Shown: positions 1 through 14,690 of the stretch, piece by piece | How the letters are laid out: every line of letters starts with the position of its first letter | Position numbering within the stretch: the stretch's first letter is position 1 | From: Bacteroidales bacterium | GTDB taxonomy: Bacteria > Bacteroidota > Bacteroidia > Bacteroidales > UBA12077 | DNA length: 64,000 bases | Direction of reading: 5' to 3' | Assembly: GCA_963665525.1 (NCBI GenBank) | Contig: OY762280.1 | Coordinates: forward strand, 3,597,410-3,661,409 | Translations under genes and position numbers: made by a program | The notes under the pieces: generated by a model | The model's input: the letters and a program-made list of their open reading frames with translations, nothing else | Databases searched by the model: none | Told to the model about the DNA's origin: nothing

Positions 1-112
1 TTGACTAAAATCTTGAAAAAAAGGTTACAAACCCTTTAACCGTAATTTTATACTTTCATAAATTTTGCTTTATTTGCATCTTTACTTTAAGGATAGCATG
101 AGGAAGAATTAA

Positions 113-3100
113 ATGGAATTTGAAAGAAGGTTAAAAAACAAAACGATACTCACAGTCATGATGGTGCTATTTATTTTATGTGCCATCTACTTTATGTTGG
201 GAATGAAAAATCAGAAAAAATACTCTGATTGGCAAATCCAGAAAGAAAATGCTTTAGTAAATCTTAAGATTAAAAACCTTTTTCAAACCACAAATCAGCT
301 CTATAGAGATAAAATACAGTTCTTTGTGAATAACCCTGAAATAAAAAAAGATTTTTATACTCAATCAGCTGATAATTTATATCGACGAATATTTCCTCTT
401 TATACTATTCTTAAATCGGAAGATCCTTATCATTTTGAGATTAACTTTTACACTGCCGACAATCGGTCTTTATTAAACATGGAAACAGGTGCTGGTAGTA
501 TTCACTCATCGCTCGACAAAAATTCTATTGCCTATAAGGTAAATCAAGAAAAGAGAAAAAAAACAGGCTTCGAAATTGATAAGTCATTATTGTATTACAA
601 AGTAGTTGAACCTGTTATTTACAAGGGGGAATACATTGGATGTGTTGAATTTGCAATTCGTGAAAACGAGGTTATCGATCATATTACTTCAAGTTTTAAT
701 ATTTCAGCCGCCAGCTTATTCAACACCGAAAATATTCATGAAAACATCTCTAGTAAGCTTAAATCATCTTATTTGATAAACAATATTCTTATTCATTCTA
801 TTTCTAATGAAGGTATTTATAAAGAAATAGCTAAAAGTGATCATTTAACATCCGGGAAATTTAAGTTTAATAACAAATACTACTATCTGAATATATTAAG
901 TGTTGAAAGTAATTTAAAAAAGGAAGGACTAGAAGGAATTATTTATGTGCGTGATATTACTAACTTACAAAATCAATTTCAAGCTACAATTTATAAATCA
1001 TTGTTAATTATATTCCTGATTTTTTTCTCTACTTATTTAATACTGCACTTTTCATTTAATACCATCATCCATAAAATCTTTAATTTACAGGATTCATTAG
1101 ATGAAAGGCTTGCACAAAAAACCAAAGAGATTGTAAATGCCAATGCAGAATTAAATCAGATATTTAATACTACTGGGAATAGTATGCGGCTTATCGATAC
1201 CGACTATAATATTATTCGTGTAAATAGAGCATTCACCAGTATGTCAGGTATTAGTAAAGAAGATGCAGAAGGAAAAAAATGCTTTAACATTTTTCCGGGT
1301 CCTTATTGTCACACTGCCGAATGTCCATTGAATAGAATAAAAGAAGGCGAAGAAAGAGTTGAACAAGATATCAAGAAGAAAAATAAACAAGACAAAATTA
1401 TTCCGGGAATCTTAACTGCTGTTTCTTTTAAAGGTCAGAATGGAGAAATTTTGGGAATCATTGAAGATTTTAAGGATATTTCAAAACGTGTTGAAGCAGA
1501 AAATGCTAAACTAAAAGCTGAGCAGCGCTTTTCTATTTTTATGGATAATCTACCGCTGGGAGTATTTATTAAAGATGAAAATCTTAAGTCTGTGTATATA
1601 AACAAGTATATGGATTGGATATATCCTATTGAAGAGTGTCAGAACAAAACACCACAAGAAATCTTTCCTGCAGAATATGCTAAACGTGTACTTGAAGAAG
1701 ATAAGCGAGTGTTAAATGGCGAAGTTTTAGTCGTTGAAGACAACCTTCCAAATCAATTAGGCGAGCTTAGGTACTATCAAACGCATAAATTCAGATTTAG
1801 AGGCGATCATAATAAATGGCAAATTGGAGGTGTTTCCATTGATATTACTAAACGTAAAAAAGCAGAACATAAGCTTAGGATATTATCTAATGCTATTCAG
1901 CACTCTCCAGCTTGTGTTATTATAACTGATTTGGAAGGTAAAATAGAAATTGTTAATCCAAGTTTTACTCAAATTACAGGGTATTCTTCAGATGATATTG
2001 TAGGAAAAGATATAAGTATTCTTCATTCGAACTCAAACTCCAGCAAGAAATTTAACGATATTATCTCCACTTTAATTCAAGGGCAAGATTGGCAAGGAGA
2101 ATTTCATAATAAAAAGAAAAATGGAGAAAATTATTGGGAATTAGCATCTATTTCTCCTGTCCTGAATGATAAACAAGAAATTACTCATTTTGTAGTGATC
2201 TCTGAAAATATCACTTCAAGAAAAAGAAACGAAAAAGAGCTTATCGATGCAAAAGAAAAAGCAGAAGAATCTAATCGATTAAAAACAGCTTTCCTTGCTA
2301 ATTTATCGCATGAGATAAGAACTCCCATGAATGCTATCATTGGCTTTTCAAGTTTACTTATGGATGAAGATATATCTTATGAAGAGAAAGTTAAGTTAAA
2401 CAAACTCATCAATGCAAATAGTCTTAACCTGCTTAAACTTATTGATGATGTTATAGATATATCAAAAATACAATCAGGAGATATCGAATTAAATAAAACA
2501 AAATGTTATTTAAATAAACTCCTTCTTGATCTTTATGTTTCCTTTAGTGTTCAAATTGAAAATGATAACAGTAAGCAAATTCATCTTTCAATGAATAAAG
2601 GCTCAAGAGATAACGACTTTTCATTAATCAGCGATCCTATTCGAATTAGACAAATTTTACACAACCTGATTGAAAATGCTGTAAAATTTACTACAAAAGG
2701 CTTCGTTGAATTTGGCTATACCATCATAGAAGAGGAAAATAAAATTCAGTTTTATGTTATCGACTCAGGAATAGGTATCTCTAATGAAAAATTTGATCTT
2801 ATTTATGACTTGTTCCGTCAAGCAGATGAATCTTTTACACGCGAATATGGAGGTACAGGAATAGGCTTAACAATTGCAAAAAGTATTGTTGATCATCTGG
2901 GTGGTGAAATCTGGATTCAATCAACACCAAATCAGGGCACAAATATTTACTTCACTTTACCATTTGAAAGTTCCGAGTCGAAATTTGTATCGGCAGAACA
3001 TGATTTAACCTTAAATCAGTTTGACTGGAAAAATAAAGTTGTTGTTGTTGCTGATGATATTGACATTAACTATAAATTAATTGAAGAAATTCTTATACCT

Positions 3101-3397
3101 ACTAAAGCAAAGATTATTTGGGCTAAAGATGGAAATGAAGCTGTTGAAATTTGTTTAAACAATGATGATATTGATTTGGTTTTAATGGATATCAATATGC
3201 CGGGAATGGATGGTTTTGAAGCAACACAAAAAATAAAAGCACATAAACAGAAAGTAAAAATTATTGGTCAAACAGCATATCCTGAAGATGATGATGAAGA
3301 AAGATATTTAAATGCAGGATTTGATAATTACATTGTAAAACCAATAAAAATAGATACTTTACTTTCAGTTATAAATAATATTTTTTCACAAAATTAA
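113..3397 (+). CDS. Hybrid sensor histidine kinase/response regulator (TM, periplasmic domain, TM, about 3 PAS, HisKA, HATPase_c, REC)
   Basis: N-terminal TM (ILTVMMVLFILCAIYFML) and a second TM near aa 295-315. H-box LANLSHEIRTPMNAIIG. HATPase motifs HNLIENAVKFT, DSGIGI and GGTGIGL. C-terminal receiver VVVADDIDINY...DLVLMDINMPGMDG...VKP. Confidence 0.9.
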   Translation: MEFERRLKNKTILTVMMVLFILCAIYFMLGMKNQKKYSDWQIQKENALVNLKIKNLFQTTNQLYRDKIQFFVNNPEIKKDFYTQSADNLYRRIFPLYTILKSEDPYHFEINFYTADNRSLLNMETGAGSIHSSLDKNSIAYKVNQEKRKKTGFEIDKSLLYYKVVEPVIYKGEYIGCVEFAIRENEVIDHITSSFNISAASLFNTENIHENISSKLKSSYLINNILIHSISNEGIYKEIAKSDHLTSGKFKFNNKYYYLNILSVESNLKKEGLEGIIYVRDITNLQNQFQATIYKSLLIIFLIFFSTYLILHFSFNTIIHKIFNLQDSLDERLAQKTKEIVNANAELNQIFNTTGNSMRLIDTDYNIIRVNRAFTSMSGISKEDAEGKKCFNIFPGPYCHTAECPLNRIKEGEERVEQDIKKKNKQDKIIPGILTAVSFKGQNGEILGIIEDFKDISKRVEAENAKLKAEQRFSIFMDNLPLGVFIKDENLKSVYINKYMDWIYPIEECQNKTPQEIFPAEYAKRVLEEDKRVLNGEVLVVEDNLPNQLGELRYYQTHKFRFRGDHNKWQIGGVSIDITKRKKAEHKLRILSNAIQHSPACVIITDLEGKIEIVNPSFTQITGYSSDDIVGKDISILHSNSNSSKKFNDIISTLIQGQDWQGEFHNKKKNGENYWELASISPVLNDKQEITHFVVISENITSRKRNEKELIDAKEKAEESNRLKTAFLANLSHEIRTPMNAIIGFSSLLMDEDISYEEKVKLNKLINANSLNLLKLIDDVIDISKIQSGDIELNKTKCYLNKLLLDLYVSFSVQIENDNSKQIHLSMNKGSRDNDFSLISDPIRIRQILHNLIENAVKFTTKGFVEFGYTIIEEENKIQFYVIDSGIGISNEKFDLIYDLFRQADESFTREYGGTGIGLTIAKSIVDHLGGEIWIQSTPNQGTNIYFTLPFESSESKFVSAEHDLTLNQFDWKNKVVVVADDIDINYKLIEEILIPTKAKIIWAKDGNEAVEICLNNDDIDLVLMDINMPGMDGFEATQKIKAHKQKVKIIGQTAYPEDDDEERYLNAGFDNYIVKPIKIDTLLSVINNIFSQN

Positions 3398-3464
3398 ACT
3401 GTGATAATAACGTTATTTAATAAAATTCTCTATTAAGCTGTAATTTAATGTATTAAATTTTTAT

Positions 3465-3472
3465 TACATTTG
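3465..3472 (+). promoter_or_regulatory. Candidate Bacteroidota sigma-A -7 box (TACATTTG, consensus TAnnTTTG)
   Basis: Exact match to TAnnTTTG, 51 nt upstream of the ATG at 3523. Confidence 0.35.
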
Positions 3473-3522
3473 TTCAGATGTAGTTACTTTTATTTAAATG
3501 AACCGCTAATAAAAACAAGATC

Positions 3523-4653
3523 ATGATCGCAACCTACATTCAGGAATTACTTGCTACAAATAACAGGGTAATAGTGCCTAACTATGGAGCATTTTTGGTT
3601 AGGGCTACTTCAAAAAGCAAGGACGCGAATACTTTAGAAGAAAAACTAAAAGATATTTATTTCAGCCCCTTTCTTAAGTTTAATGATGAACTTCTTGAAA
3701 AATATGTTATCAAGAAAGAAGGGGTAAGCAAAGAGCAAGCAGCTCAAAAAATAACAGAGTTTATCGATGCGGTTAAAAAAGAACTTGAACAGGAAAAACC
3801 TTATGTAATTAAAGGTTTTGGCGAATTTGTTGCAGATAAACAAGGAAAAGTTCAGTTTAATACCGTTACAAAAGAAATTACTGAAACAAAACCTGCTGAA
3901 GCTAAAGAAGAAAAGAAACCTGCAACAAAAACAACAAGTACTAAAAAAGCAACTACAACTAAAAAAGCAGCTGAGAAAAAAGAGGAAGAAAAACCTAAAG
4001 CTGCTCCGGTAAAGGAAGAAAAGAAAGAAATCGTATTAGAAGAGTTTAAAGACGAGAAAAAAGAAACTGCTGCCCCTAAAACCACTACTCCAACTAAACC
4101 AATTTACAGTTATAAAAGAGAAAAGAAACCTGTGAATAAAGGTTTAGTATGGGCAATTGCTATTGGAGTACCTGTAGCTGCTGTCTTTGTATGGGCATTA
4201 TTAAATTTCTCTACTATTAAAAAAGTTCTTCATAAAGATAAAGCCAAAACAGAACAAGTTGCTAAAAAGAAAAAAACTACTACAACTAAAAAAACAGCAA
4301 CTAAACCGGCGACTAAGCAAACAAAAGAACCTGCAGAAACAACAAAAACAGCAACGAAACAACCAACAGCTAAGGCTGAACCTAAAGCCCGTCCGGCAGG
4401 CGGGGAAGTTAAAAAGCCTGTTGTTCCTCAAAAGAAATATTACATCATTGCCGGAAGTTTTAAAAATGAAAAATATGCTAATGCATTTTTAAATAAATTA
4501 AAAGCGGAAGGATATAATGCAGAAAAACTGGAACAAAGAAATGGAATGCACGCAGTAAGCTACAATTCATTTGCTGATAAGAAAAAAGCCATAGCAGAAT
4601 ACAAATTCCTTGCACAAGAAAAAGGATTACAAGCTTGGATTTTATATTATTAA
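3523..4653 (+). CDS. HU-like (HU-CCDC81-type) N-terminal domain, low-complexity linker, TM, and C-terminal SPOR peptidoglycan-binding domain
   Basis: N-terminus MIATYIQELLATNNRVIVPNYGAFLV resembles bacterial HU-CCDC81 domains. The linker is K/T/E/A/P-rich. One TM (GLVWAIAIGVPVAAVFVWALLNF). C-terminus KKYYIIAGSFKNEKYANAFLNKLKAEGYNAEK...AVSYNSF is SPOR-like. Confidence 0.75.
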   Translation: MIATYIQELLATNNRVIVPNYGAFLVRATSKSKDANTLEEKLKDIYFSPFLKFNDELLEKYVIKKEGVSKEQAAQKITEFIDAVKKELEQEKPYVIKGFGEFVADKQGKVQFNTVTKEITETKPAEAKEEKKPATKTTSTKKATTTKKAAEKKEEEKPKAAPVKEEKKEIVLEEFKDEKKETAAPKTTTPTKPIYSYKREKKPVNKGLVWAIAIGVPVAAVFVWALLNFSTIKKVLHKDKAKTEQVAKKKKTTTTKKTATKPATKQTKEPAETTKTATKQPTAKAEPKARPAGGEVKKPVVPQKKYYIIAGSFKNEKYANAFLNKLKAEGYNAEKLEQRNGMHAVSYNSFADKKKAIAEYKFLAQEKGLQAWILYY

Positions 4654-4675
4654 ACCAAAATTTAATATATGCTGA

Positions 4676-4700
4676 AAGCCACATGTCATGTGGCTTTTTT
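4676..4700 (+). terminator. Rho-independent terminator
   Basis: Stem agccacat/atgtggct with loop gtc, followed by a T-run, 23 nt after the stop codon. Confidence 0.7.
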
Positions 4701-4764
4701 TATACTTGTCAAAAAAAAATCAATTTGTAAAAACAAAATCAACTCTACATATTCAATTTTTGCT

Positions 4765-4771
4765 TAATTTG
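4765..4771 (+). promoter_or_regulatory. Candidate -7 box (TAATTTG)
   Basis: TAnnTTTG match about 30 nt upstream of the ATG at 4802. Confidence 0.4.
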
Positions 4772-4801
4772 CATTTTTAATCAACCTTTATCTTTATATG
4801 A

Positions 4802-6193
4802 ATGAAAATTAAGTATCTTGATTTAATTGAGCAAACTTTTGACTTTCCACAACAAGAGTTTGAACTAGATGGTGATAATTTACTATTTCACAAAATTCCA
4901 TTAATGGATATGATTCAAAAATACGGAACACCATTAAAATTTACTTATTTACCACAAATTTCGAATCAAATACAAAAAACGAAGTCATGGTTTAAGAGTG
5001 CCATGAAAAAGGTAAATTATAAAAGTAAATACCATTACTGCTATTGTACAAAAAGTTCACATTTTAGGCATATTTTACATGAAGCACTTAAAAATGATAT
5101 TCATATTGAAACCTCATCTGCTTACGATATAAATATTGTTGAACAACTTTATAAAGAAAAGAAAATTACCAAATCAAGCTATATTATTTGTAATGGTTTT
5201 AAACGGGACCAATATATTGAAAACATTGCCCGTTTAATAAATAATGGTTTTGAAAATACAATTCCGGTTATTGATAATTATAAAGAACTCGATCGGCTAG
5301 AAGAATTAATCGACGTTCCATTTGAAGTAGGAATCAGAATTGCTTCAGAAGAAGAACCAAAATTTGAATTTTATACTTCACGTTTAGGAATTGGATATAA
5401 GAACATTGTTAATTTTTATCTTAAACAAATTAAAGAAAATCCTAACATTAAACTCAAAATGTTGCATTTTTTTATTAATACAGGTATTAAAGATAATGCA
5501 TACTACTGGAGTGAATTAGTAAAGTGTTTAAATGTTTATGGTGAACTTAAAAAGGTTTGTCCTGAACTGGATTCCTTAAATATTGGAGGAGGATTTCCAA
5601 TTAAAAACTCACTCTCGTTTGATTACGATTATGAGTATATGGCCGATGAAATCATTTTACAAATAAAAACTTATTGCGAGGCCAATAATTTAAAAGAACC
5701 TCATATATTTACTGAGTTTGGTTCTTTTACTGTTGGCGAAAGCGGAGGTATTATTTATTCTGTTCTAGGTCAGAAAAAACAAAACGACCGGGAAGCATGG
5801 AATATGATCGACAGCTCATTTATGACAACATTACCTGATAGTTGGGCTATTAATAAGCGATTCATCATGTTACCAATAAACAGGTGGAACAGTACTTATG
5901 AACGTGTTTTTTTAGGAGGATTAACTTGCGATAGCGACGATTACTATAATTCAGAACAACATAGTAATGCAATCTATTTGCCGAAATTTGATCAGAATAA
6001 TACGCTATATATAGGTTTCTTTAATACCGGTGCTTATCAGGATACTTTAGGAGGTTATGGGGGTTTACAGCATTGTTTAATTCCAGGGCCACAGCATATT
6101 ATCATTGATAAAGATTCTAAAGGTAATTTTACCACTTCTCTTTTTTCAAAAGAGCAGGCTCCTAATGATATGCTTAAAATTTTAGGTTACTAA
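4802..6193 (+). CDS. Type III PLP-dependent (alanine-racemase-fold) basic amino acid decarboxylase, probably arginine decarboxylase (short form)
   Basis: Orn/DAP/Arg decarboxylase-like blocks: YCYCTKSS around the PLP lysine, LNIGGGFP, EFGSF, GGLTCDSDD. It lies immediately upstream of an agmatinase gene. Confidence 0.7.
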   Translation: MKIKYLDLIEQTFDFPQQEFELDGDNLLFHKIPLMDMIQKYGTPLKFTYLPQISNQIQKTKSWFKSAMKKVNYKSKYHYCYCTKSSHFRHILHEALKNDIHIETSSAYDINIVEQLYKEKKITKSSYIICNGFKRDQYIENIARLINNGFENTIPVIDNYKELDRLEELIDVPFEVGIRIASEEEPKFEFYTSRLGIGYKNIVNFYLKQIKENPNIKLKMLHFFINTGIKDNAYYWSELVKCLNVYGELKKVCPELDSLNIGGGFPIKNSLSFDYDYEYMADEIILQIKTYCEANNLKEPHIFTEFGSFTVGESGGIIYSVLGQKKQNDREAWNMIDSSFMTTLPDSWAINKRFIMLPINRWNSTYERVFLGGLTCDSDDYYNSEQHSNAIYLPKFDQNNTLYIGFFNTGAYQDTLGGYGGLQHCLIPGPQHIIIDKDSKGNFTTSLFSKEQAPNDMLKILGY

Positions 6194-6206
6194 TCCTGAT
6201 CATAAT

Positions 6207-7061
6207 ATGAATTACGCTGGAATACCTGATAAATATGCTCAGCTGGAATCATCTAAAATAGTTTTGATTCCTGTTCCTTATGATGGAACAAGCACATGGA
6301 TTAAAGGTGCAGATAAAGGTCCAGATGCCTTTCTTGAAGCATCGGAAAACATGGAAATATACGATATTGAAACAGATTCTGAAGTTTACAAACAAGGCGT
6401 TTTTTTGGCGAATCCTGTAACAGAAAACAAATCTCCAGAAAGGATGGTTGATGCAGTTTATAAAACTGCATCAGAATATATCAAACAAGGAAAATTTGTA
6501 ACTCTCTTTGGAGGAGAACATTCGGTAAGTATTGGATCAATACGTGCTTTTCGTGAAAATTTTGAACAGCTTACAGTACTTCAATTCGACGCTCATGCCG
6601 ACCTTCGACCTGAATATGAAGAATCTAAATGTAATCATGCCTGTGCTGTTCACGAAGCACAACATACAACCAATCTTATTCAGATTGGGATTCGCAGCAT
6701 GGATACCGTGGAAAAACCTTTCTTAAAAAAGGAAAACTGTTTTTTTGCCAATGAAATTTTTGCTAATCCTGACTGGATGAATCAAGCCCTGGGGAAAATA
6801 ACCGAAAATGTTTTTATTACCATTGATTTGGATGTTTTTGATTCGTCGATCATGCCATCAACTGGAACCCCAGAACCCGGAGGATTGAACTGGTACCAGG
6901 TAGTTGATTTTATAAGATTAGTCGTAAAAAATAAGAATGTAGTAGGATTTGATATCATGGAACTCTGTCCGAATAAAATAAATAAAGGACCTGATTTCCT
7001 TGCTGCAAAGCTTTATTATAAAATATTAAGTTACGTGTTTAACAATTCAAAATTAGCTTAG
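6207..7061 (+). CDS. speB: Agmatinase (ureohydrolase/arginase family)
   Basis: Mn-binding ureohydrolase motifs GGEHSVS, DAHADLR and DLDVFD, plus MELCP. Gene context is ADC upstream and a DHS-like gene downstream. Confidence 0.8.
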   Translation: MNYAGIPDKYAQLESSKIVLIPVPYDGTSTWIKGADKGPDAFLEASENMEIYDIETDSEVYKQGVFLANPVTENKSPERMVDAVYKTASEYIKQGKFVTLFGGEHSVSIGSIRAFRENFEQLTVLQFDAHADLRPEYEESKCNHACAVHEAQHTTNLIQIGIRSMDTVEKPFLKKENCFFANEIFANPDWMNQALGKITENVFITIDLDVFDSSIMPSTGTPEPGGLNWYQVVDFIRLVVKNKNVVGFDIMELCPNKINKGPDFLAAKLYYKILSYVFNNSKLA

Positions 7062-7063
7062 TT

Positions 7064-8038
7064 ATGGAAAGAAATACCATATCAAAATTTATTGAAGATC
7101 ATTTTTTACATTTTAATGCTGCAGCACTTAAAGATGCTGCAATAGGCTATGAAAAACATTTAGCAGAAGGTGGAAAAATGATGATTACTCTTGCCGGAGC
7201 AATGAGTACTGGAGAGCTTGGGAAAAGTTTAGCTGAGATGATTCGTCAGGATAAAGTACAGATCATTTCTTGTACAGGAGCTAATCTTGAAGAAGATATC
7301 ATGAATCTTGTAGCACATTCCCACTATAAACGTGTACCAGAATACAGGGATTTATCGCCTAAACAAGAGTGGGAATTATTAGAAAAAGGATTGAATCGTG
7401 TAACTGATACTTGTATACCTGAAGAAGAAGCTTTCAGACGTTTACAACAACATATCTATGAAATTTGGAAAGAAGCTGACAAAAAAGGGGAAAGATATTT
7501 TCCACATGAATACATGTATAAAATGTTACTTTCAGGAGTATTAGAACAATACTACGAAATTGATCCTAAAAACTCATGGATGTTAGCAGCTGCAGAAAAG
7601 AACTTGCCAATTGTTGTTCCCGGATGGGAAGACAGTACTATGGGTAATATCTTTGCATCATACTGCATTAAAGAACAGTTAAAACCATCAACTATGAAAT
7701 CAGGTATTGAATACATGACTTGGCTAGCCAATTGGTATACCAATAATTCTGATGGAAAAGGAATTGGTTTCTTCCAGATTGGAGGTGGAATAGCCGGTGA
7801 TTTCCCTATTTGTGTAGTCCCAATGTTATACCAGGATTTAGAAAAAGAAGATACTCCTTTCTGGAGTTATTTCTGCCAGATTTCTGATTCAACTACAAGT
7901 TATGGTTCTTACTCAGGGGCTGTGCCTAATGAAAAAATTACCTGGGGAAAACTGGATATTGACACCCCCAAATTTATTGTTGAATCCGATGCCACCATTG
8001 TTGCACCTTTAATTTTTGCCTGGCTACTTAACTGGTAA
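7064..8038 (+). CDS. Deoxyhypusine synthase family protein (bacterial DHS-like; possible homospermidine synthase)
   Basis: DHS-like blocks TLAGAMSTGELG, ISCTGANLEEDI, QIGGGIAGDFP, and the conserved catalytic-lysine context EKITWGKL (Lys codon at 7949-7951). Confidence 0.8.
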   Translation: MERNTISKFIEDHFLHFNAAALKDAAIGYEKHLAEGGKMMITLAGAMSTGELGKSLAEMIRQDKVQIISCTGANLEEDIMNLVAHSHYKRVPEYRDLSPKQEWELLEKGLNRVTDTCIPEEEAFRRLQQHIYEIWKEADKKGERYFPHEYMYKMLLSGVLEQYYEIDPKNSWMLAAAEKNLPIVVPGWEDSTMGNIFASYCIKEQLKPSTMKSGIEYMTWLANWYTNNSDGKGIGFFQIGGGIAGDFPICVVPMLYQDLEKEDTPFWSYFCQISDSTTSYGSYSGAVPNEKITWGKLDIDTPKFIVESDATIVAPLIFAWLLNW

Positions 8039-8058
8039 AATAAATCATTAATATATTT

Positions 8059-8089
8059 ATCCTTCATAAATCATTATGAAGGATTTTTT
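8059..8089 (+). terminator. Rho-independent terminator
   Basis: Stem atccttcataa/ttatgaaggat with loop atca, then TTTTTT. Confidence 0.75.
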
Positions 8090-8093
8090 GTCT

Positions 8094-8100
8094 TAATTTG
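8094..8100 (+). promoter_or_regulatory. Candidate -7 box (TAATTTG)
   Basis: TAnnTTTG match 38 nt upstream of the ATG at 8138. Confidence 0.4.
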
Positions 8101-8137
8101 CAAATGATATCTGCTCTTTAACGATTATTAATTTAAT

Positions 8138-9217
8138 ATGAAAGATTTAAAGACAACCAATTCGCTTTTACTAATCATTGTAATACCACTGATTTTTTAT
8201 TTACTAAAGATCTTATCTTTTATTTTTATTCCTCTCATATTGTCAATGTTTATCGCATTGTTATTTCTGCCAATAATGCGTTGGTTTAAAAGAAAAAAAT
8301 TCCCCAAATGGTTAAGTATTTTAATTATAATTCTATTAATCATAGGTTCAATAAAAGCTGGTGGTGAATTAATACGTTTATCAAGCAAAGAAATTCTTTC
8401 TGCTGATAATACCTTTTTTAAAAAAGCCGAAATCAAAATAAATGATGTGATTTTATCTGTTGAGCATTTCTTTGGACTGGAGCGGGTTGAAGGAGAAAAG
8501 GTGCTTAATCACTACATTAATCAAGACAATATTATGGTCAATGTAAAATATGCTTTAACTTTTATTCGAAGTACATTATCCATTGTTTTAATGACAGCTT
8601 TCTTTGTTATTTTACTGCTAGCCGGCTCCGTTGATTTTCAAAAGTTACTTAACCAAACTCTTATAAAAGCCAAATACTCTTCGATGAAAGCATTTTTTAA
8701 AATAGAAAAAGATATCATCAAGTTTGTGAAAGTTAAATTTATAATCAGCCTGTTTACTGGTATTGGATTCAGTTTATCGTGCGTAATTTTCGGAGTTAGC
8801 TTTCCAATTTTCTGGGGCTTATTTGCCTTTGTTGTAAATTTCATTCAGATGATTGGATCGGTAATATCTATTATATTATTGGCATTATTTGCCTTTGTTG
8901 AACTGGATCCTACCGGAACTCTCCTCCTGTTTATAATGGTAATTATTGCTATACAAGTATTAATGGGAAGTGTTCTTGAACCAATTTTTATGGGAAAAAC
9001 GTTCTCTGTAAATGTAGTTACCATATTAATTATGTTAATGCTATGGGGATATATATGGGGCATCCCCGGGTTAATTATCTCTGTCCCAATGACAGTTATT
9101 ATTAAAATTATTTTGGAACAGTTCCCAAAGACAAAAATAATTGCCGACTTCTTATCCGGTAAAGATCCTAAAGTGCCGTTATTAATCAATAAGAATCTGA
9201 ACGATAAAAATAATTAA
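8138..9217 (+). CDS. AI-2E family (PerM/YdiK-like) transporter
   Basis: 359-aa polytopic membrane protein with about 8 TM segments. Topology and length are typical of the AI-2E/UPF0118 family. Confidence 0.65.
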   Translation: MKDLKTTNSLLLIIVIPLIFYLLKILSFIFIPLILSMFIALLFLPIMRWFKRKKFPKWLSILIIILLIIGSIKAGGELIRLSSKEILSADNTFFKKAEIKINDVILSVEHFFGLERVEGEKVLNHYINQDNIMVNVKYALTFIRSTLSIVLMTAFFVILLLAGSVDFQKLLNQTLIKAKYSSMKAFFKIEKDIIKFVKVKFIISLFTGIGFSLSCVIFGVSFPIFWGLFAFVVNFIQMIGSVISIILLALFAFVELDPTGTLLLFIMVIIAIQVLMGSVLEPIFMGKTFSVNVVTILIMLMLWGYIWGIPGLIISVPMTVIIKIILEQFPKTKIIADFLSGKDPKVPLLINKNLNDKNN

Positions 9218-9242
9218 CACCTGTATCAAAAATCATTTCCAA

Positions 9243-9575
9243 ATGAATACCAGCTCTTTATACTTAAACGAGAATCCAAGCTTAAAAGATTTTCAGGAAT
9301 ATGTGAAAAAATTAGAGAATGAACGTGGTTTTAGCAAACAAGATGTAATTCAAAAATGCCTGCTTTTGGGCGAAGAAATCGGCGAATTATTTAAAGCTGT
9401 TCGAAAAATGCAATCTATCAGCATTGATAAGCAAAACTCTAAAATAACCACTGTAGAAGAAGAACTAGCAGACATTCTTATATATATTTGCTCTATTGCA
9501 AACAGGTATAATATTAATCTTGAAGAAGCCTTCAGACATAAGGAAGAAATCAATAAAAAAAGAGTTTGGAGTTAA
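9243..9575 (+). CDS. MazG-like nucleotide pyrophosphohydrolase domain protein
   Basis: EEIGELFKAVRK ... EELADILIYICSIANRYNINLEEAF matches the EExxE/ExxD helix pair of the MazG family. Confidence 0.7.
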   Translation: MNTSSLYLNENPSLKDFQEYVKKLENERGFSKQDVIQKCLLLGEEIGELFKAVRKMQSISIDKQNSKITTVEEELADILIYICSIANRYNINLEEAFRHKEEINKKRVWS

Positions 9576-9588
9576 GTATATAAAAAGA

Positions 9589-9609
9589 AAGGGCTTATAA
9601 AAAGCCCTT
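9589..9609. terminator. Bidirectional hairpin terminator between convergent genes
   Basis: Stem aagggctt/aagccctt flanked by A-rich and T-rich runs, between the 9575 stop (+) and the 9624 stop (-). Confidence 0.6.
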
Positions 9610-9623
9610 CTATAATAAATCAG

Positions 9624-10792
9624 TTAGTTTTTATAACTCATATACTCGTGCATATTCGATTTTAGAAAATATTCCATTTCAGTTTTATTATTTTCATCTA
9701 CTTCGCTAAAAGCAAAAGCAAAAACCGGGTATTTATGGTAATCTATTTTGTGCATGTGTAACAAATTAGAAAAGCCTTTTTTAAAAGCATCATAATTTAC
9801 TTTTTCCACTTTTTCTGGACGAATATCATGACTTGCAATAATCACATTGTATTGCGAATTTTCCTTGCCTTTGAAGCTTTCATGCCAATCAGGAACTTCC
9901 TCTTTAAAATAGGCTTCGTATGGATTAAATCCTCGCGAATATTTTGTCATATCACCCATGCAAAAACCTGCAAATCGCATTGGATTAGCCTCAATTGGAA
10001 TAGCTACTCCCTGTGAATTAATACGAAACTCAATATGCATAGCAAAATTACGGAATTTCCCTTCTGTTGATAATGCTTCAAGTACGTGCATAAACTTATC
10101 ATATCCAACATCAAAAACTTTCTTAGATGTAAAATACAAACGATCGCTCACATCTTTCCCAGAAGCAAAAACATGCTCGTATATATTCACAATCTCAGGT
10201 TTTCCATCCGCTTTAAAGAAAGCATCTACAGCATATTCCTTACCATCAATTAGTTCTTCCAGTAAAAACCGATTACTATCTAAAACTTCTTTTGGAAAAA
10301 TATGTTCGGCTTCTTTCATTTCCTTTTTTAAGTCAACCAGAACTTTATCCCAGTCTTGTTTATTCTCAACAACATGAATCCCCAAACTAAAAAATCCAGT
10401 AACCGGTTTAATAATAAATGGAAAACCAAACTCCTCTACATTAAAACTTGGCAAATTGTCAAAACTCACTTCAGCAAATCTAAAATCAGGATAAACAGGT
10501 TTTAACAATTCGCGAAATTTAAACTTATCCTTACATAATTCAATCAGTTCTGGAAGATGTGTGTGTTTCAAATTTTCCTGAATCCAAGCGATACTATTCT
10601 CTGAATTACAATAAATCTTTGGTTCCTTTCATTGGCAAGTTTTTCCAATGTTTCTTTCTCTTCAACTGTTAAAACTCGTTGGGTTGTTCCAATTAAATTT
10701 CTTGCCGATTCTGTTTGAATCATTGGAATATTTATTTGTTCACTTGTTTGCATCAACAACTCCGATGCAAAAGGATAATCTATTAAAAACAT
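9624..10792 (-). pseudogene. ATP-grasp domain protein split by a single-nucleotide frameshift (pseudogene or assembly error)
   Basis: A 74-aa ORF (10568-10792) and a 315-aa ORF (9624-10571, with only a TTG start) are adjacent on the same strand. The downstream frame stays open back to a TGA at about 10622. Adding one A in ...GAAAGGAA^CCAAAG... (about 10608-10612) gives a continuous ...EKLANERKPKIYCNSENSIAWIQENLKHTHLPELIE... of about 390 aa. The C-terminal part has an ATP-grasp-like fold signature (FPFIIKPVTGFFSLGIHVV, EELIDGKEYAVDAFF, IEANPMRFAG). Confidence 0.6.
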
Positions 10793-11026
10793 ATCTACTT
10801 TTTTAAAACAAGGCGCAAAATTAGAAAAAATATCTTTCTAAAATTTGATATCGATAAGGAAATTAGAGAATTAAGGAATCTTCAATACAAAAATGAATTC
10901 TTATAGAAAAATTATCTTTAATTAAACCATAAATAATTCAAAAAGCGAAGTTAAATATCTAAAAACTAAAAAAATCAGATAGTATATAAAAATGTGTTAG
11001 AATATATGAGCTTCAGAAAGATTTTG

Positions 11027-12262
11027 TTAATAAAACTCAAAACCAATAATAGAAATATCGTCGAAAATGGCAGCATTATCTTCGAGAATTTTCTGTTGCT
11101 TAACTATAGTTCCTATATTATCATCAATATCCTTTGAATTGGCAATGTTCATTTCTATTTGCTTAGTTCCAAAACTTACACCTTCATCATCAACCAATTC
11201 AACTAAACCATCTGTATAGCAAAACAATTTCGATTTTTTTTCAATTTTAAGTGTGCCAAGTTTTAAAGTCGGAATCTCATCGAGCATGCCCATACCAACA
11301 CAACCATCCCGTAAGAATAGCAGATCTTTGTTCTCCATATTATAAAAAATAGGAGGATTATGTCCTGCATTAATATATTCCAGGGTATTTGATTTGTAAC
11401 TATAACGCCCAATAAAAAGAGTAATAAATTTTTCGCCTTTAGCACTGGCCATTACCCTTTCATTTAATTTTTCTATCAATTCTTGTAATGGTACTTTAGC
11501 CGTAAATAAGGCGCGTAAATTAGCCTGGAAATTTGACATTAATAAAGCTGCTGAAATTCCTTTCCCTGAAACATCGGCTATACAAAAACCTATTTCATCT
11601 TTGCTTAACTGGATAAAATCGTAGTAATCACCTCCAACTTCTAAATGCGGATGGTAGAATGTAGAAACAAGAATCTTTTCGTTATGTGGTAATATTGACC
11701 TGTCAGGAATAAGCATCGACTGCATCTTGGATGCCAGTTCCAACTCTTTCTTTAAGGCCTCTTGTTTTAACGATTCTTTATATAAACGAATATTTTCAAT
11801 GGCAACAATAATAATATTTGATAATGTTTGAATGAAATGAAGGTGTTTAATCGTAGGACTTACACCCTCCTTTTCTTCATCAATATCACCAATTAGAACA
11901 AATGCGATTGGGATATTATTATTAATGACCGGAATGATATTATCGAAAACTCTTAATGTTGGATTTGGCGATGCGGTAATAAAAGAAATTTCTTCATGTC
12001 CTAATAGATCCTTTTCAACATCTATTCGTTTGATAATCTCATTAGAACATCCTGAACTTAAAATTAAATCCCAATCTTTATCATATTTAAAGATCAGGAT
12101 TTTACCAATATTTAAATCTTCGCGAAGAATTTTCTCATAACGATGAAGCAATTCTTCGGTTGAAAGATTCTCGTTAATAGCTTTTGTAATAGTTAACAAG
12201 GTATTCAGCTTAAATGTCGAAAGCTTTAACCTGTTTATCGATGCTTTTCCGGCAAGGTCCAT
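11027..12262 (-). CDS. GAF-domain PP2C/SpoIIE-family serine phosphatase (RsbU-like)
   Basis: The C-terminal half contains GGDYYDF, ADVSGKGISAALLMS, NAGHNPP and YTDGLVE (SpoIIE/PP2C motifs). The N-terminal 170 aa or so look GAF-like. Confidence 0.8.
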   Translation of the reverse strand: MDLAGKASINRLKLSTFKLNTLLTITKAINENLSTEELLHRYEKILREDLNIGKILIFKYDKDWDLILSSGCSNEIIKRIDVEKDLLGHEEISFITASPNPTLRVFDNIIPVINNNIPIAFVLIGDIDEEKEGVSPTIKHLHFIQTLSNIIIVAIENIRLYKESLKQEALKKELELASKMQSMLIPDRSILPHNEKILVSTFYHPHLEVGGDYYDFIQLSKDEIGFCIADVSGKGISAALLMSNFQANLRALFTAKVPLQELIEKLNERVMASAKGEKFITLFIGRYSYKSNTLEYINAGHNPPIFYNMENKDLLFLRDGCVGMGMLDEIPTLKLGTLKIEKKSKLFCYTDGLVELVDDEGVSFGTKQIEMNIANSKDIDDNIGTIVKQQKILEDNAAIFDDISIIGFEFY

Positions 12263-12319
12263 TTGTTCTTTTTTACAAATCTGAATAAATGTACGAAATT
12301 TAAGAACAAAAAGAAAGAT

Positions 12320-12889
12320 TTACTCTTTTACCCTTTCACCATATGAATGATCTCTGGTATCAACCTTAATTTTATCACCTGTGTTAACAAATAAAGGAAC
12401 CATTATTTCTGCTTCTGTCTCTAACTTGGCAGGTTTTAATGATGTACTGGAAGATGTATCCCCTTTTAATCCTGGTTCGGTATAAATAACTTCTAACACA
12501 ACATAAGCAGGAAGTTCTGCATATAATGGTGTTTCAGTGTCGGCATGCCATACAGCTTCAACTCCTTGTCCTTCTTTTAATAAATCAGGAGCATTAATTA
12601 ACTCTTCTTGAAAAGATACTTGTTCGAAAGTCTCACTATGCATAAAATGATATCCCATATCGTCTTTATAAAGAAACTGATAAGGACGACGCTCAATACG
12701 CTGAACATTCACTTTAACACCAGCATTAAAAGTATTATCAATAACTTTACCTGTTTTTAGGTTTTTAAGTTTTGTTCTAACAAAAGCTGCTCCTTTTCCT
12801 GGTTTTACATGTTGAAACTGAACGATTGTATATAAATCTCCATTATACTCAATACATAATCCATTTTTAAAATCTGCTGTACTTGCCAT
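12320..12889 (-). CDS. efp: Elongation factor P
   Basis: [39 protein letters not shown] is the canonical EF-P N-terminus. The loop lysine K32 is in the PGKG motif (codon 12794-12796). Confidence 0.95.
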
Positions 12890-12920
12890 AATCTTTAATT
12901 TTATTCAAATGAAATTTGTG

Positions 12921-12928
12921 CAAAAATA
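12921..12928 (-). promoter_or_regulatory. Candidate -7 box for efp (TATTTTTG on the minus strand)
   Basis: The plus strand reads CAAAAATA. The reverse complement matches TAnnTTTG, 32 nt upstream of the efp ATG. Confidence 0.35.
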
Positions 12929-12993
12929 ATGTAAATCATTGAAATAACCTGATTAAACTTTTAAATCAGATTCATTTTAAGAAAAGTCCCTTT

Positions 12994-13767
12994 TTAAAGC
13001 ACCTCTAGCTTGTGCTGTAATCCAGAATATTCAATTAAATCACACTTTATAGACCCAATAATCAGGTCAATACGGATTTGCACAGGAATGTAATTTTTAT
13101 CTTTCGATATCCAAATTGTTACATCGTCTTCCGAATCAAAGATTCTGCCTGGTTCAACAACCGGTGAAAATTTCATGGTATTAAACTTTCCTAATTTGGT
13201 TTTTATGGTTTCATCACCTACATAACGCATTTTTAAGGGGAAAACCTCATCGGCAAAATAAGTGTCTAAAATTAACTCGTCGCCAATATTCTGAATACGA
13301 CTAACCATAGATTCGCGGAAATAATAAAAAGCACCCAACATATCGAAAATGTTTTCCGGTACTTCGTGCTCACCCGATTTTTGACTTACCACCTTATTTT
13401 CTTCGTAATTATATCTTACCTCGTTGTAATATCTGTATTTTCCTTCGCTAATATTTCGAATAGCAAGATATGTTTGGTTATTTTCTGGTCTGAAAAAACT
13501 TTCGTAAACATCACGAACTTCAAATAATTTATCTGCTAATCCAATGGTTTTTGCCTGTGCAACAGCATGATATAAATTCTGATTTTCTAATATGGAATCA
13601 TTAATTATAAAAGTTGCGGTTCCTGCATTAAGCCAACCAAAATGTGCAATATATACTAATTTTTCTCCAGCAATATAAGGTTTTATATCATCTGTTTTAT
13701 TCGCATGAAAGCTCGAGCTTATAATAAAAATAAGTATCAGGAAAATTATATTTGATCTACCTTTCAT
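12994..13767 (-). CDS. Secreted DUF3108-like protein
   Basis: Signal peptide (IIFLILIFIISSSFHA). GEKLVY..HFGWLNAGTATF and a C-terminal block IPVQIRIDLIIGSIKCDLIEY resemble DUF3108. This is recalled from memory, not searched. Confidence 0.5.
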   Translation of the reverse strand: MKGRSNIIFLILIFIISSSFHANKTDDIKPYIAGEKLVYIAHFGWLNAGTATFIINDSILENQNLYHAVAQAKTIGLADKLFEVRDVYESFFRPENNQTYLAIRNISEGKYRYYNEVRYNYEENKVVSQKSGEHEVPENIFDMLGAFYYFRESMVSRIQNIGDELILDTYFADEVFPLKMRYVGDETIKTKLGKFNTMKFSPVVEPGRIFDSEDDVTIWISKDKNYIPVQIRIDLIIGSIKCDLIEYSGLQHKLEVL

Positions 13768-13804
13768 GTTTGAAGTTTTAAAACAGAAAGCAAAAATGAT
13801 GCAA

Positions 13805-14521
13805 CTATTTAAAAATATTCTTCTTTGGAACCGTAGCTATAAAATCTTTTAAATAAAAAGGCTCAAAATAAGCTACATCTTCAAAATGCTGTTTGTCGAA
13901 TGCTGTTTCAGCAATTTTAATCATATCTTTTGCTGATGGATCGTAACCAGGAATAAATTTAGCATTCTTGTGTCTTATCACTTCTGTAATTTTTTCAGAG
14001 CCATCACCAAAAAATATCATCTGTTTATTCTCTAAAATATCCTGATAAGAAGATTCATCAATAATCTCAGCTTTAACATCTCTAGTAAACTCTCCTTCTG
14101 AGTTAAAAAAAGCAGAGTAAACCTCCATTCTTCGAGCATCAATCATTGGAACTAATATGGCTTTTTCAATTTCATGGATTGATAAATTTCCCTCCGCCTG
14201 CCTTTGGATTATTCCATTAGCCATTGATTGTAAGGTATTCACAGCAACTAATGGTAAATCTTTTGCAAAACACAAGCCTTTTGCTGTAGAAACACCAATT
14301 CTAAGTCCTGTATAAGATCCTGGTCCTTTACTAATTGCAATAGCATCCAGATCATCAACCTTAATATGAAGTTCATTGAATAATTCTTGAATAAAAATAG
14401 TCAGTTTCTTGGCATGTGATTTTTCTTCCTTACTTTCTCTCAACCCTATTGCTTGCCCATCACGCGAAACACATACCGAACATACTCTTGTTGAAGTCTC
14501 AATGTGTAGTATTAATGCCAT
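13805..14521 (-). CDS. tsaB: tRNA t6A37 threonylcarbamoyl transfer complex dimerization subunit TsaB
   Basis: MALILHIETSTRVCSV ... AISKGPGSYTGLRIGVSTAKGL is the canonical TsaB (YeaZ) N-terminus. The start is moved from the track's 14593 to the ATG at 14521. Confidence 0.85.
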   Translation of the reverse strand: MALILHIETSTRVCSVCVSRDGQAIGLRESKEEKSHAKKLTIFIQELFNELHIKVDDLDAIAISKGPGSYTGLRIGVSTAKGLCFAKDLPLVAVNTLQSMANGIIQRQAEGNLSIHEIEKAILVPMIDARRMEVYSAFFNSEGEFTRDVKAEIIDESSYQDILENKQMIFFGDGSEKITEVIRHKNAKFIPGYDPSAKDMIKIAETAFDKQHFEDVAYFEPFYLKDFIATVPKKNIFK

Positions 14522-14690
14522 ATAAATCCTCTTTTCTTCAGCTATATCAACAAAGATTAAACCTAAATAATAAATGCCAAATTTATGAAACATATCATTA
14601 GTAAAAGATTAATTTTTGATCTTTTTTATCCCATATTTATTTTTTAATTTAGTGAACTACAGGATCGACCAAAAATCTTATTTTATACCA

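Follow-up and report, generated by a model that had tools for sequence, protein, structure and literature searches.

A putative agmatine-dependent homospermidine operon with a deoxyhypusine synthase homologue in a Bacteroidales bacterium

We analysed a stretch of 64,000 nucleotides, hereafter called the window, from the genome of a Bacteroidales bacterium (GenBank assembly GCA_963665525.1, contig OY762280.1, positions 3,597,410 to 3,661,409), focusing on three adjacent genes that encode an arginine decarboxylase (ADC), a SpeB-like ureohydrolase and SpeY, a bacterial homologue of deoxyhypusine synthase (DHS). By analogy with enzymes described in other bacteria, the three genes very likely constitute one operon for an agmatine-dependent ('diagmatine') route to sym-homospermidine. 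In the proposed pathway, arginine would be converted to agmatine by a short ADC of the alanine-racemase (AR) fold. SpeY, with NAD and Lys296, would then move a 4-guanidinobutyl unit between agmatines to form N1,N9-bis(guanidino)homospermidine (G44G), and the SpeB-like ureohydrolase would release both guanidino groups of G44G as urea to leave homospermidine. Putrescine would not be an intermediate. Judged by this analogy, the cluster is a further case of the ADC-SpeY-DUH pathway (DUH, diagmatine ureohydrolase) described as characterised in the same phylum. The three activities are predicted from tested homologues, and our own data concern gene anatomy, protein families, the SpeY pocket, the polyamine gene inventory and synteny.

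The list of open reading frames (ORFs) places the three genes on the plus strand (Table 1), encoding proteins of 463, 284 and 324 amino acids (aa), with gaps of 13 nt between ADC and SpeB and 2 nt between SpeB and speY. An earlier, sequence-only reading of the window had described the same packing, and both the ORFs and the Pfam assignments agree with it. Exactly these three genes are bracketed by terminator-like hairpins, and because hairpins stand on both sides, ADC, SpeB and speY look like one self-contained transcription unit. An Rfam scan of positions 1-16000 returned no RNA family, and thus no riboswitch 5′ of the operon. The sigma-70 promoter scan was at chance level (44 found, 42.7 expected). 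The sequence TAATTTGCA upstream of the ADC start resembles the Bacteroidota −7 element, the consensus of which we take to be TAnnTTTG; its count in the window (3, against 2.98 expected by chance) was not significant. A second copy of TAATTTGCA is located at 8094-8102, 35 nt 5′ of the start codon of an AI-2E transporter gene. Horizontal gene transfer was considered as an explanation for the G+C content of the cluster (0.36 versus 0.32 for the genome) and rejected, as the G+C content at third codon positions of the three genes (0.22-0.26) matches that of the neighbours. Since the G+C excess sits in codon positions 1 and 2, there was no sign of recent transfer.

Table 1 Features of the predicted operon and of the nearby efp gene (positions in the window).
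Feature	Position	Strand	Basis
Terminator-like hairpin, 3′ of the upstream HU/SPOR gene	4674..4698	+	11-pair stem with 4 GC pairs, then T run; consensus match only
TAATTTGCA, possible Bacteroidota-type −7 promoter element (weak), 28 nt 5′ of the ADC start	4765..4773	+	Motif resemblance; count at chance level
Short ('ancestral') AR-fold, pyridoxal-phosphate (PLP) arginine decarboxylase (ADC)	4802..6193	+	Pfam, NCBIfam, SpeA alignment
SpeB-like ureohydrolase, predicted G44G ('diagmatine') ureohydrolase (DUH)	6207..7061	+	Pfam, NCBIfam, analogy with Winogradskyella algicola SpeB
SpeY, bacterial DHS homologue, predicted activity	7064..8038	+	PF01916, model versus solved structures, human DHS alignment
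Lys296 codon, aligned with catalytic Lys329 of human DHS	7949..7951	+	Translation and alignment
Terminator-like hairpin, 21 nt 3′ of the speY stop, downstream unit boundary	8059..8084	+	11-pair stem, then TTTTTTGT
efp (elongation factor P, Lys32 in KPGKGAAF), separate block, judged not part of the system	12320..12889	-	Pfam, NCBIfam, translation

SpeY matched the Pfam family DS (PF01916) with an E-value of 1.2e-41 over profile positions 11-286 of 288. Its translation reads ...VPNEKITWGKLD..., which includes NEKITWGKL, and Lys296 in this segment aligned with Lys329 of human DHS; retention of the catalytic lysine in an ITWGKL context, claimed by the sequence-only reading, was thus confirmed. In the same alignment, Asp238, Glu323 and Trp327 of human DHS correspond to Asp190, Glu290 and Trp294, and Asp243 and Asp316 correspond to Asn195 and Tyr283; the two positions that bind spermidine in human DHS are therefore uncharged in SpeY. 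His288 of human DHS corresponds to Asp246, an assignment that is less certain in the sequence alignment. Asp190, Asn195, Asp246, Tyr283, Glu290 and Trp294 were invariant in all 24 aligned family members, which came from several orders, and Lys296 was present in 23 of them. The exception, P0170 (a cluster of 23 member sequences, 91% identical), carries Gln in place of Lys296 (ITWGQL) and may have lost activity or reflect a faulty assembly. An AlphaFold model of SpeY computed with 24 homologues had a mean pLDDT of 78.7 and a pTM of 0.81, with low confidence in the loop 276-295, and it superposed on solved archaeal and eukaryotic DHS structures with TM-scores of 0.65-0.72.

The relationship of SpeY to DHS itself (EC 2.5.1.46; human 1RLZ/8A0E, Pyrococcus horikoshii 7CMC) is one of shared fold, catalytic Lys and Trp-Gly-Lys motif, and SpeY is predicted to share the NAD-dependent aminobutyl-type transfer. 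The proteins differ in that their identity is about 16-21% and that Asp243, Asp316 and, by alignment, His288 are not kept in SpeY. In addition, the host is a bacterium without the eIF5A/aIF5A substrate: elongation factor P (EF-P) was the sole homologue of this factor, and the IF-5A model, which has a cut-off of 138, reached 25 bits.

A bacterial DHS homologue has been described in Thermus thermophilus, where CdmS/SpeY (caldomycin synthase) couples two agmatines to bis-guanidino homospermidine (PMC10981699, Sci Rep 2024). As reported there, CdmS keeps the catalytic Lys299 and Glu293, and Phe204 and Leu286 replace Asp243 and Asp316 of human DHS. CdmS and the SpeY studied here thus share the catalytic Lys with a Glu six residues earlier (Glu290/Lys296 here), uncharged residues where human DHS binds spermidine through two Asp residues, and association with an ADC and a ureohydrolase. 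They differ in the residues at these positions (Asn195 and Tyr283 here) and in length (340 aa versus 324 aa).

According to a 2026 study (PMC13625781, J Biol Chem), all SpeY proteins tested, from several phyla, accumulate G44G in E. coli lacking agmatinase. These include a 325-aa SpeY from the flavobacterium Winogradskyella algicola (Table S1 of that study). In its cluster, as described there, SpeB and SpeY accompany an 'ancestral' AR-fold ADC that lacks a four-helix bundle of approximately 100 aa. The purified W. algicola SpeB acted on G44G with a kcat/KM of 4.2e4 per M per s, and its agmatine activity was undetectable. The authors regard the SpeY route as agmatine-dependent and as excluding putrescine. 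The cluster in the window resembles that of W. algicola, as described there, in phylum, in the three gene types, in SpeY length and in an ADC without the insert of about 100 aa. It differs in that it belongs to another order, its nearest named homologues among the 120 best matches being from Bacteroidales metagenome-assembled genomes (MAGs), and in the length of SpeB (284 aa here, 313 aa there, by description). In light of these reports, the suggestion of the sequence-only reading that the cluster is a polyamine module with homospermidine-type aminobutyl chemistry matches the SpeY pathway (PMC10981699, PMC13625781), and its statement that DHS-like genes are linked to speA and speB in the literature was borne out. 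Its remark that the role of these genes in Bacteroidota is not well established has been overtaken by the enzyme assays on SpeY and SpeB of W. algicola in the 2026 study (PMC13625781, sections 5-7 and Table S1).

The first gene of the operon matched Orn_Arg_deC_N in Pfam (E-value 3.8e-17). Its best NCBIfam match was the biosynthetic ADC at 175.3 bits, under the cut-off of 369, and lysA gave 82.3. Residues 44-326 of ADC aligned to residues 87-381 of E. coli SpeA, and residues 336-420 aligned to SpeA 487-576. SpeA 382-486 had no counterpart (query 326 to 336), indicating that the four-helix-bundle insert of about 100 aa is missing. By sequence, ADC is therefore the 'ancestral' AR-fold form, with arginine as the probable substrate. 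A report on decarboxylases of the aspartate aminotransferase (AAT) fold (PMC8503589) has no bearing on this ADC.

SpeB belongs to the arginase family in Pfam (E-value 1e-60), and its stop codon precedes the speY start by only 2 nt, so that a gene of the arginase/agmatinase family stands beside speY. Among the 120 best matches, SpeB was 75-90% identical to proteins named 'agmatinase' in Bacteroidales MAGs and 71-73% identical to Flavobacteriaceae 'agmatinases'. By analogy with the reported substrate choice of W. algicola SpeB, this enzyme is most likely a G44G ureohydrolase (DUH) and not a true agmatinase. Activity on G44G and not on agmatine is so far on record solely for SpeB of W. algicola and of C. 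aerophila (PMC13625781, Table 4), and the available text of that study gives no sequence signature for it.

We inventoried polyamine genes in the genome, which is one contig of 4,597,882 bases (99.86% complete). A single PF01916 gene and a single efp were found. Three of the family searches were extended over the order (401 genomes each), and the rows of the bacterium's own genome and genus were used. Agmatine iminohydrolase was absent from this genome and from all three same-genus genomes; 281 of the 401 genomes of the order carry one. No AdoMet decarboxylase was found in the genome, and no AAT-fold decarboxylase exceeded its cut-off (18.6 vs 27). The remaining candidates were rejected: the best match for carboxynorspermidine decarboxylase (nspC) is LysA (389.7 bits, above the cut-off of 297.9); three saccharopine-dehydrogenase-family genes reached only 33-41 bits against 800 for carboxyspermidine dehydrogenase (CASDH); the 445-aa member of these three, considered as homospermidine synthase (HSS), was identified through solved relatives as a saccharopine reductase; and the second arginase-family gene is formimidoylglutamase HutG (295.9, above the cut-off of 229). 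Bacterial HSS (EC 2.5.1.44, 4TVB) shares its end product, homospermidine, with the proposed pathway, but its fold is unrelated to that of SpeY and it is putrescine-dependent; an HSS-like gene was not found in this genome.

The genome also encodes a 706-aa protein with a spermidine-synthase-like (SpeE-like) domain (G000:C1:3150331-3152451; L105:1832-3952, minus strand). It scored 129 bits against 472, under all cut-offs, and the genome has no AdoMet decarboxylase to feed it an aminopropyl donor. Similar forms of 700-850 aa are common in the order.

On this inventory, the operon appears to be the sole recognisable polyamine route, in searches that did not include pyruvoyl ADC and N-carbamoylputrescine amidohydrolase. 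Within the limits of these searches, SpeY would be the only outlet for agmatine.

To place speY in a wider context, 596 SpeY relatives were collected from named genomes, and the neighbours of speY in the best 80 of these loci were identified by tblastn (E ≤ 1e-3). Nearly all of the 120 best matches to SpeY were 323-326 aa long and were named just 'deoxyhypusine synthase family protein'. This short type was 80-87% identical across orders, and the homologues from Flavobacterium, Chryseobacterium and Flavobacteriaceae within the best 80 loci were 82-84% identical. It was more conserved than EF-P; within the genus, SpeY identity was 90-91% versus 83-86% for EF-P. Speaking for a functional unit in the window's lineage, speY is encoded together with an agmatine source (ADC) and a ureohydrolase, and the ADC-SpeB-SpeY arrangement was kept in all three same-genus genomes. 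Among the 80 loci, ADC was the only recurring neighbour (12 loci); SpeB was near speY in two loci and EF-P in none. At least 3.5 kb was available on both sides of speY in 55 of the 80 loci, and the nearest flanking ORFs were scanned in 37 of these (74 proteins). ADC was found in three of them (L020, L036 and L039), EF-P was found in none, and the neighbours were otherwise unrelated, with no recurring partner related to translation.

Three classes of DHS-like proteins were observed in the phylum: the short 324-aa type and two longer types of 343-369 aa with much higher PF01916 scores. The longer classes are 23-27% identical to SpeY of the window and carry Phe/Leu and Met/Leu at the positions of Asp243/Asp316; the class with Phe and Leu resembles CdmS, as reported, in this respect. 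All three classes have Asn or Asp at the position of human His288 (loci L001-L080 and L121-L126, and the window). In loci of the Flavobacterium type, ADC is located directly 5′ of speY with no SpeB between. An ORF of approximately 140 aa without a Pfam match follows speY in L020 (10991-11416), L036 (10402-10821) and L039 (10987-11415), and locus L011, like the window, has an AI-2E transporter adjoining speY. Between speY and SpoIIE, the window carries genes for an AI-2E family transporter, a MazG-like protein and an ATP-grasp_4 ligase (E-value 1e-54) at 8138-10571. Two same-genus genomes lack these genes at this position and have speY directly next to SpoIIE.

Several observations weigh against assignment of the cluster to the agmatine-dependent route. 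When the NCBIfam cut-offs for DHS-family equivalogs were applied, SpeY fell below all of them: its best match was NF001980, 'homospermidine biosynthesis protein' (106.5 vs 450), and another model of the family gave 88.6 bits against a cut-off of 500. The short Bacteroidota type forms a subfamily of its own that lies outside the coverage of the models, and the missed cut-offs weaken the name but do not contradict the mechanism. The pocket has Asn and Tyr where CdmS is reported to have Phe and Leu, and Asp246 where human DHS has His288. Membership of SpeY in the W. algicola subfamily is suggested indirectly, by length, taxonomy (Flavobacterium and Flavobacteriaceae homologues, with ADC adjacent) and cluster make-up as described for that species. 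In 68 of the 80 loci, speY has no ADC within reach, and in 78 it has no SpeB. The scope of the inventory given above counts in the same direction. Finally, SpeB exceeded the NCBIfam equivalog cut-off for agmatinase (TIGR01230, 221.2 vs 174.3), so that its annotation, taken by itself, would point to a true agmatinase.

This last point belongs to another explanation, which we consider improbable: ADC and a true agmatinase would make putrescine, and the DHS homologue would then form homospermidine with putrescine or spermidine as the aminobutyl donor, like the plant DHS-like HSS. Besides the TIGR01230 score, it is favoured by the best solved relatives of SpeB, the agmatinases 3LHL and 3PZL, and by the ability of eukaryotic DHS to form homospermidine from spermidine and putrescine (PMC13625781, section 2). 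However, the bacterial SpeY proteins tested in that study all accumulated G44G and needed a ureohydrolase for homospermidine, and no activity on agmatine could be detected for the SpeB proteins associated with SpeY in W. algicola and C. aerophila (its Table 4). In our data, a spermidine route that could supply the donor was not found in this genome, and SpeY has Asn and Tyr in place of Asp243 and Asp316, the residues of human DHS that hold the amines of spermidine. Because the tested SpeY proteins couple agmatines and W. algicola SpeB is reported to be inactive on agmatine, putrescine would be bypassed, and the formation of putrescine from arginine, as given in the sequence-only reading, is probably wrong. 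The agmatine-dependent route thus remains our preferred assignment.

The location of efp 4.3 kb from speY in the window had led the sequence-only reading to raise, as a long shot, a hypusine-like modification of EF-P, since DHS normally modifies eIF5A, the archaeal and eukaryotic counterpart of EF-P. The gene and its lysine were as it had described: EF-P is a 189-aa protein with all three EF-P domains in Pfam and a TIGR00038 score of 222, above the cut-off of 185.8, and Lys32 in the KPGKG loop is encoded by codon 12794-12796. In the form considered here, SpeY, alone or with SpeB, would also modify Lys32 by transferring a guanidinobutyl group from agmatine, which SpeB would trim to a deoxyhypusine-like residue. 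EF-P is the homologue of eIF5A/aIF5A with Lys32 at the loop tip, and a parallel exists in Haloferax: PMC5178350 reports an essential agmatinase-like gene that clusters with aIF5A modification and puts forward a model based on agmatine. According to a 2026 review (PMC13602936), the EF-P type of about half of bacterial genomes falls into none of the known modification classes, and EpmA and EpmB were under their cut-offs in this genome. The unusual conservation of SpeY across orders is also compatible with an EF-P substrate, and efp lies 1.4-4.3 kb from speY in three genomes of the genus.

The comparative data point the other way, and we give this idea very little credence. In the 80 related loci, efp was never near speY, and the 74 flanking proteins included no recurring neighbour with a role in translation. 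In two same-genus genomes, speY is convergent to SpoIIE-efp with efp 1.4 kb away, and in the third the genes are on different contigs. The three genomes with adjacency, including that of the window, are not independent cases because all belong to one genus. In the window too, the two genes are transcribed towards each other, with a terminator-like hairpin closing the speY unit. The block TsaB-DUF3108-efp-SpoIIE is intact and in the same order of genes in the genome G243, from the same order, which has no PF01916 gene. The polyamine operon thus adjoins an older efp block in the window's genus only, and its nearness to efp probably reflects gene order in the genus and no functional link.

The EF-P loop leads to the same result. 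HVKPGKG was kept in all 12 EF-P proteins from genomes without a PF01916 match (7 from the same order and 5 from the same class), with the loops KPGKGAAF (3, identical to that of the window), KPGKGPAF (6), KPGKGNAF (1) and KPGKGNTI (2). Because these genomes keep KPGKG in 12 of 12 cases, the lysine does not track SpeY, and EF-P in this group carries the 'modifiable lysine' by default. EF-P proteins of the PGKGP type in some Bacteroidetes are thought, in two reports, to be functional unmodified (bioRxiv 10.1101/2023.09.18.558224; PMC12931083). With these results, the proposed hypusine-like modification found no support.

We also searched the genome for known EF-P modification enzymes. The observation of the sequence-only reading that no EpmA-, EpmB- or EarP-type gene is visible in the window held for EpmA and EpmB, which also remained under cut-off genome-wide, in searches that covered EpmA, EpmB and EarP. 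The best match to EpmA (TIGR00462), a 590-aa frame as long as a complete aminoacyl-tRNA synthetase, scored 238.7 with the cut-off at 286.9, and that to EpmB (TIGR03821) scored 125 against 369.3 in a 382-aa radical SAM protein of the KamA family. The EarP profile (PF10093) had no match in the genome, but it had none in the control genomes either; EarP is not expected, because the tip residue of this EF-P is Lys and not Arg. A target in the EpmA/EpmB/EpmC, EarP and YmfI/GsaB/YnbB systems would likewise be the EF-P loop-tip residue, here Lys32, but none of these enzymes is a DHS homologue, and EarP targets Arg. EpmC and the B. subtilis YmfI/GsaB/YnbB (5-aminopentanol) enzymes are members of large families in which a profile match says little by itself. 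The 382-aa KamA-family aminomutase (G000:C1:1296737-1300567; L086:1267-2415, minus strand) was closest to glutamate 2,3-aminomutase (199 bits vs 650), was under every equivalog cut-off and adjoins an oxidoreductase of the LLM/F420 type, in a genome without an EpmA over cut-off.

Were the EF-P idea true, it would represent the first case of a hypusine-type modification in a bacterium, and an EF-P substrate could explain the slow evolution of the short SpeY type. On the evidence above, the operon gives no handle on EF-P modification in Bacteroidota with a KPGKGA loop. The short Bacteroidota SpeY has a set of pocket residues of its own (Asn195, Tyr283 and Asp246).

Under the agmatine-dependent route, the labels 'agmatinase' and 'deoxyhypusine synthase' should give way to G44G (diagmatine) ureohydrolase and SpeY/diagmatine synthase, beside ADC for the first gene. 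Of 401 genomes sampled from the phylum, 311 had a PF01916 gene, but none of the seven from the window's order did. The lineage, among sampled order relatives without a DHS homologue, seems to depend on this operon alone for its polyamines, and the organism would be expected to hold homospermidine and little putrescine.

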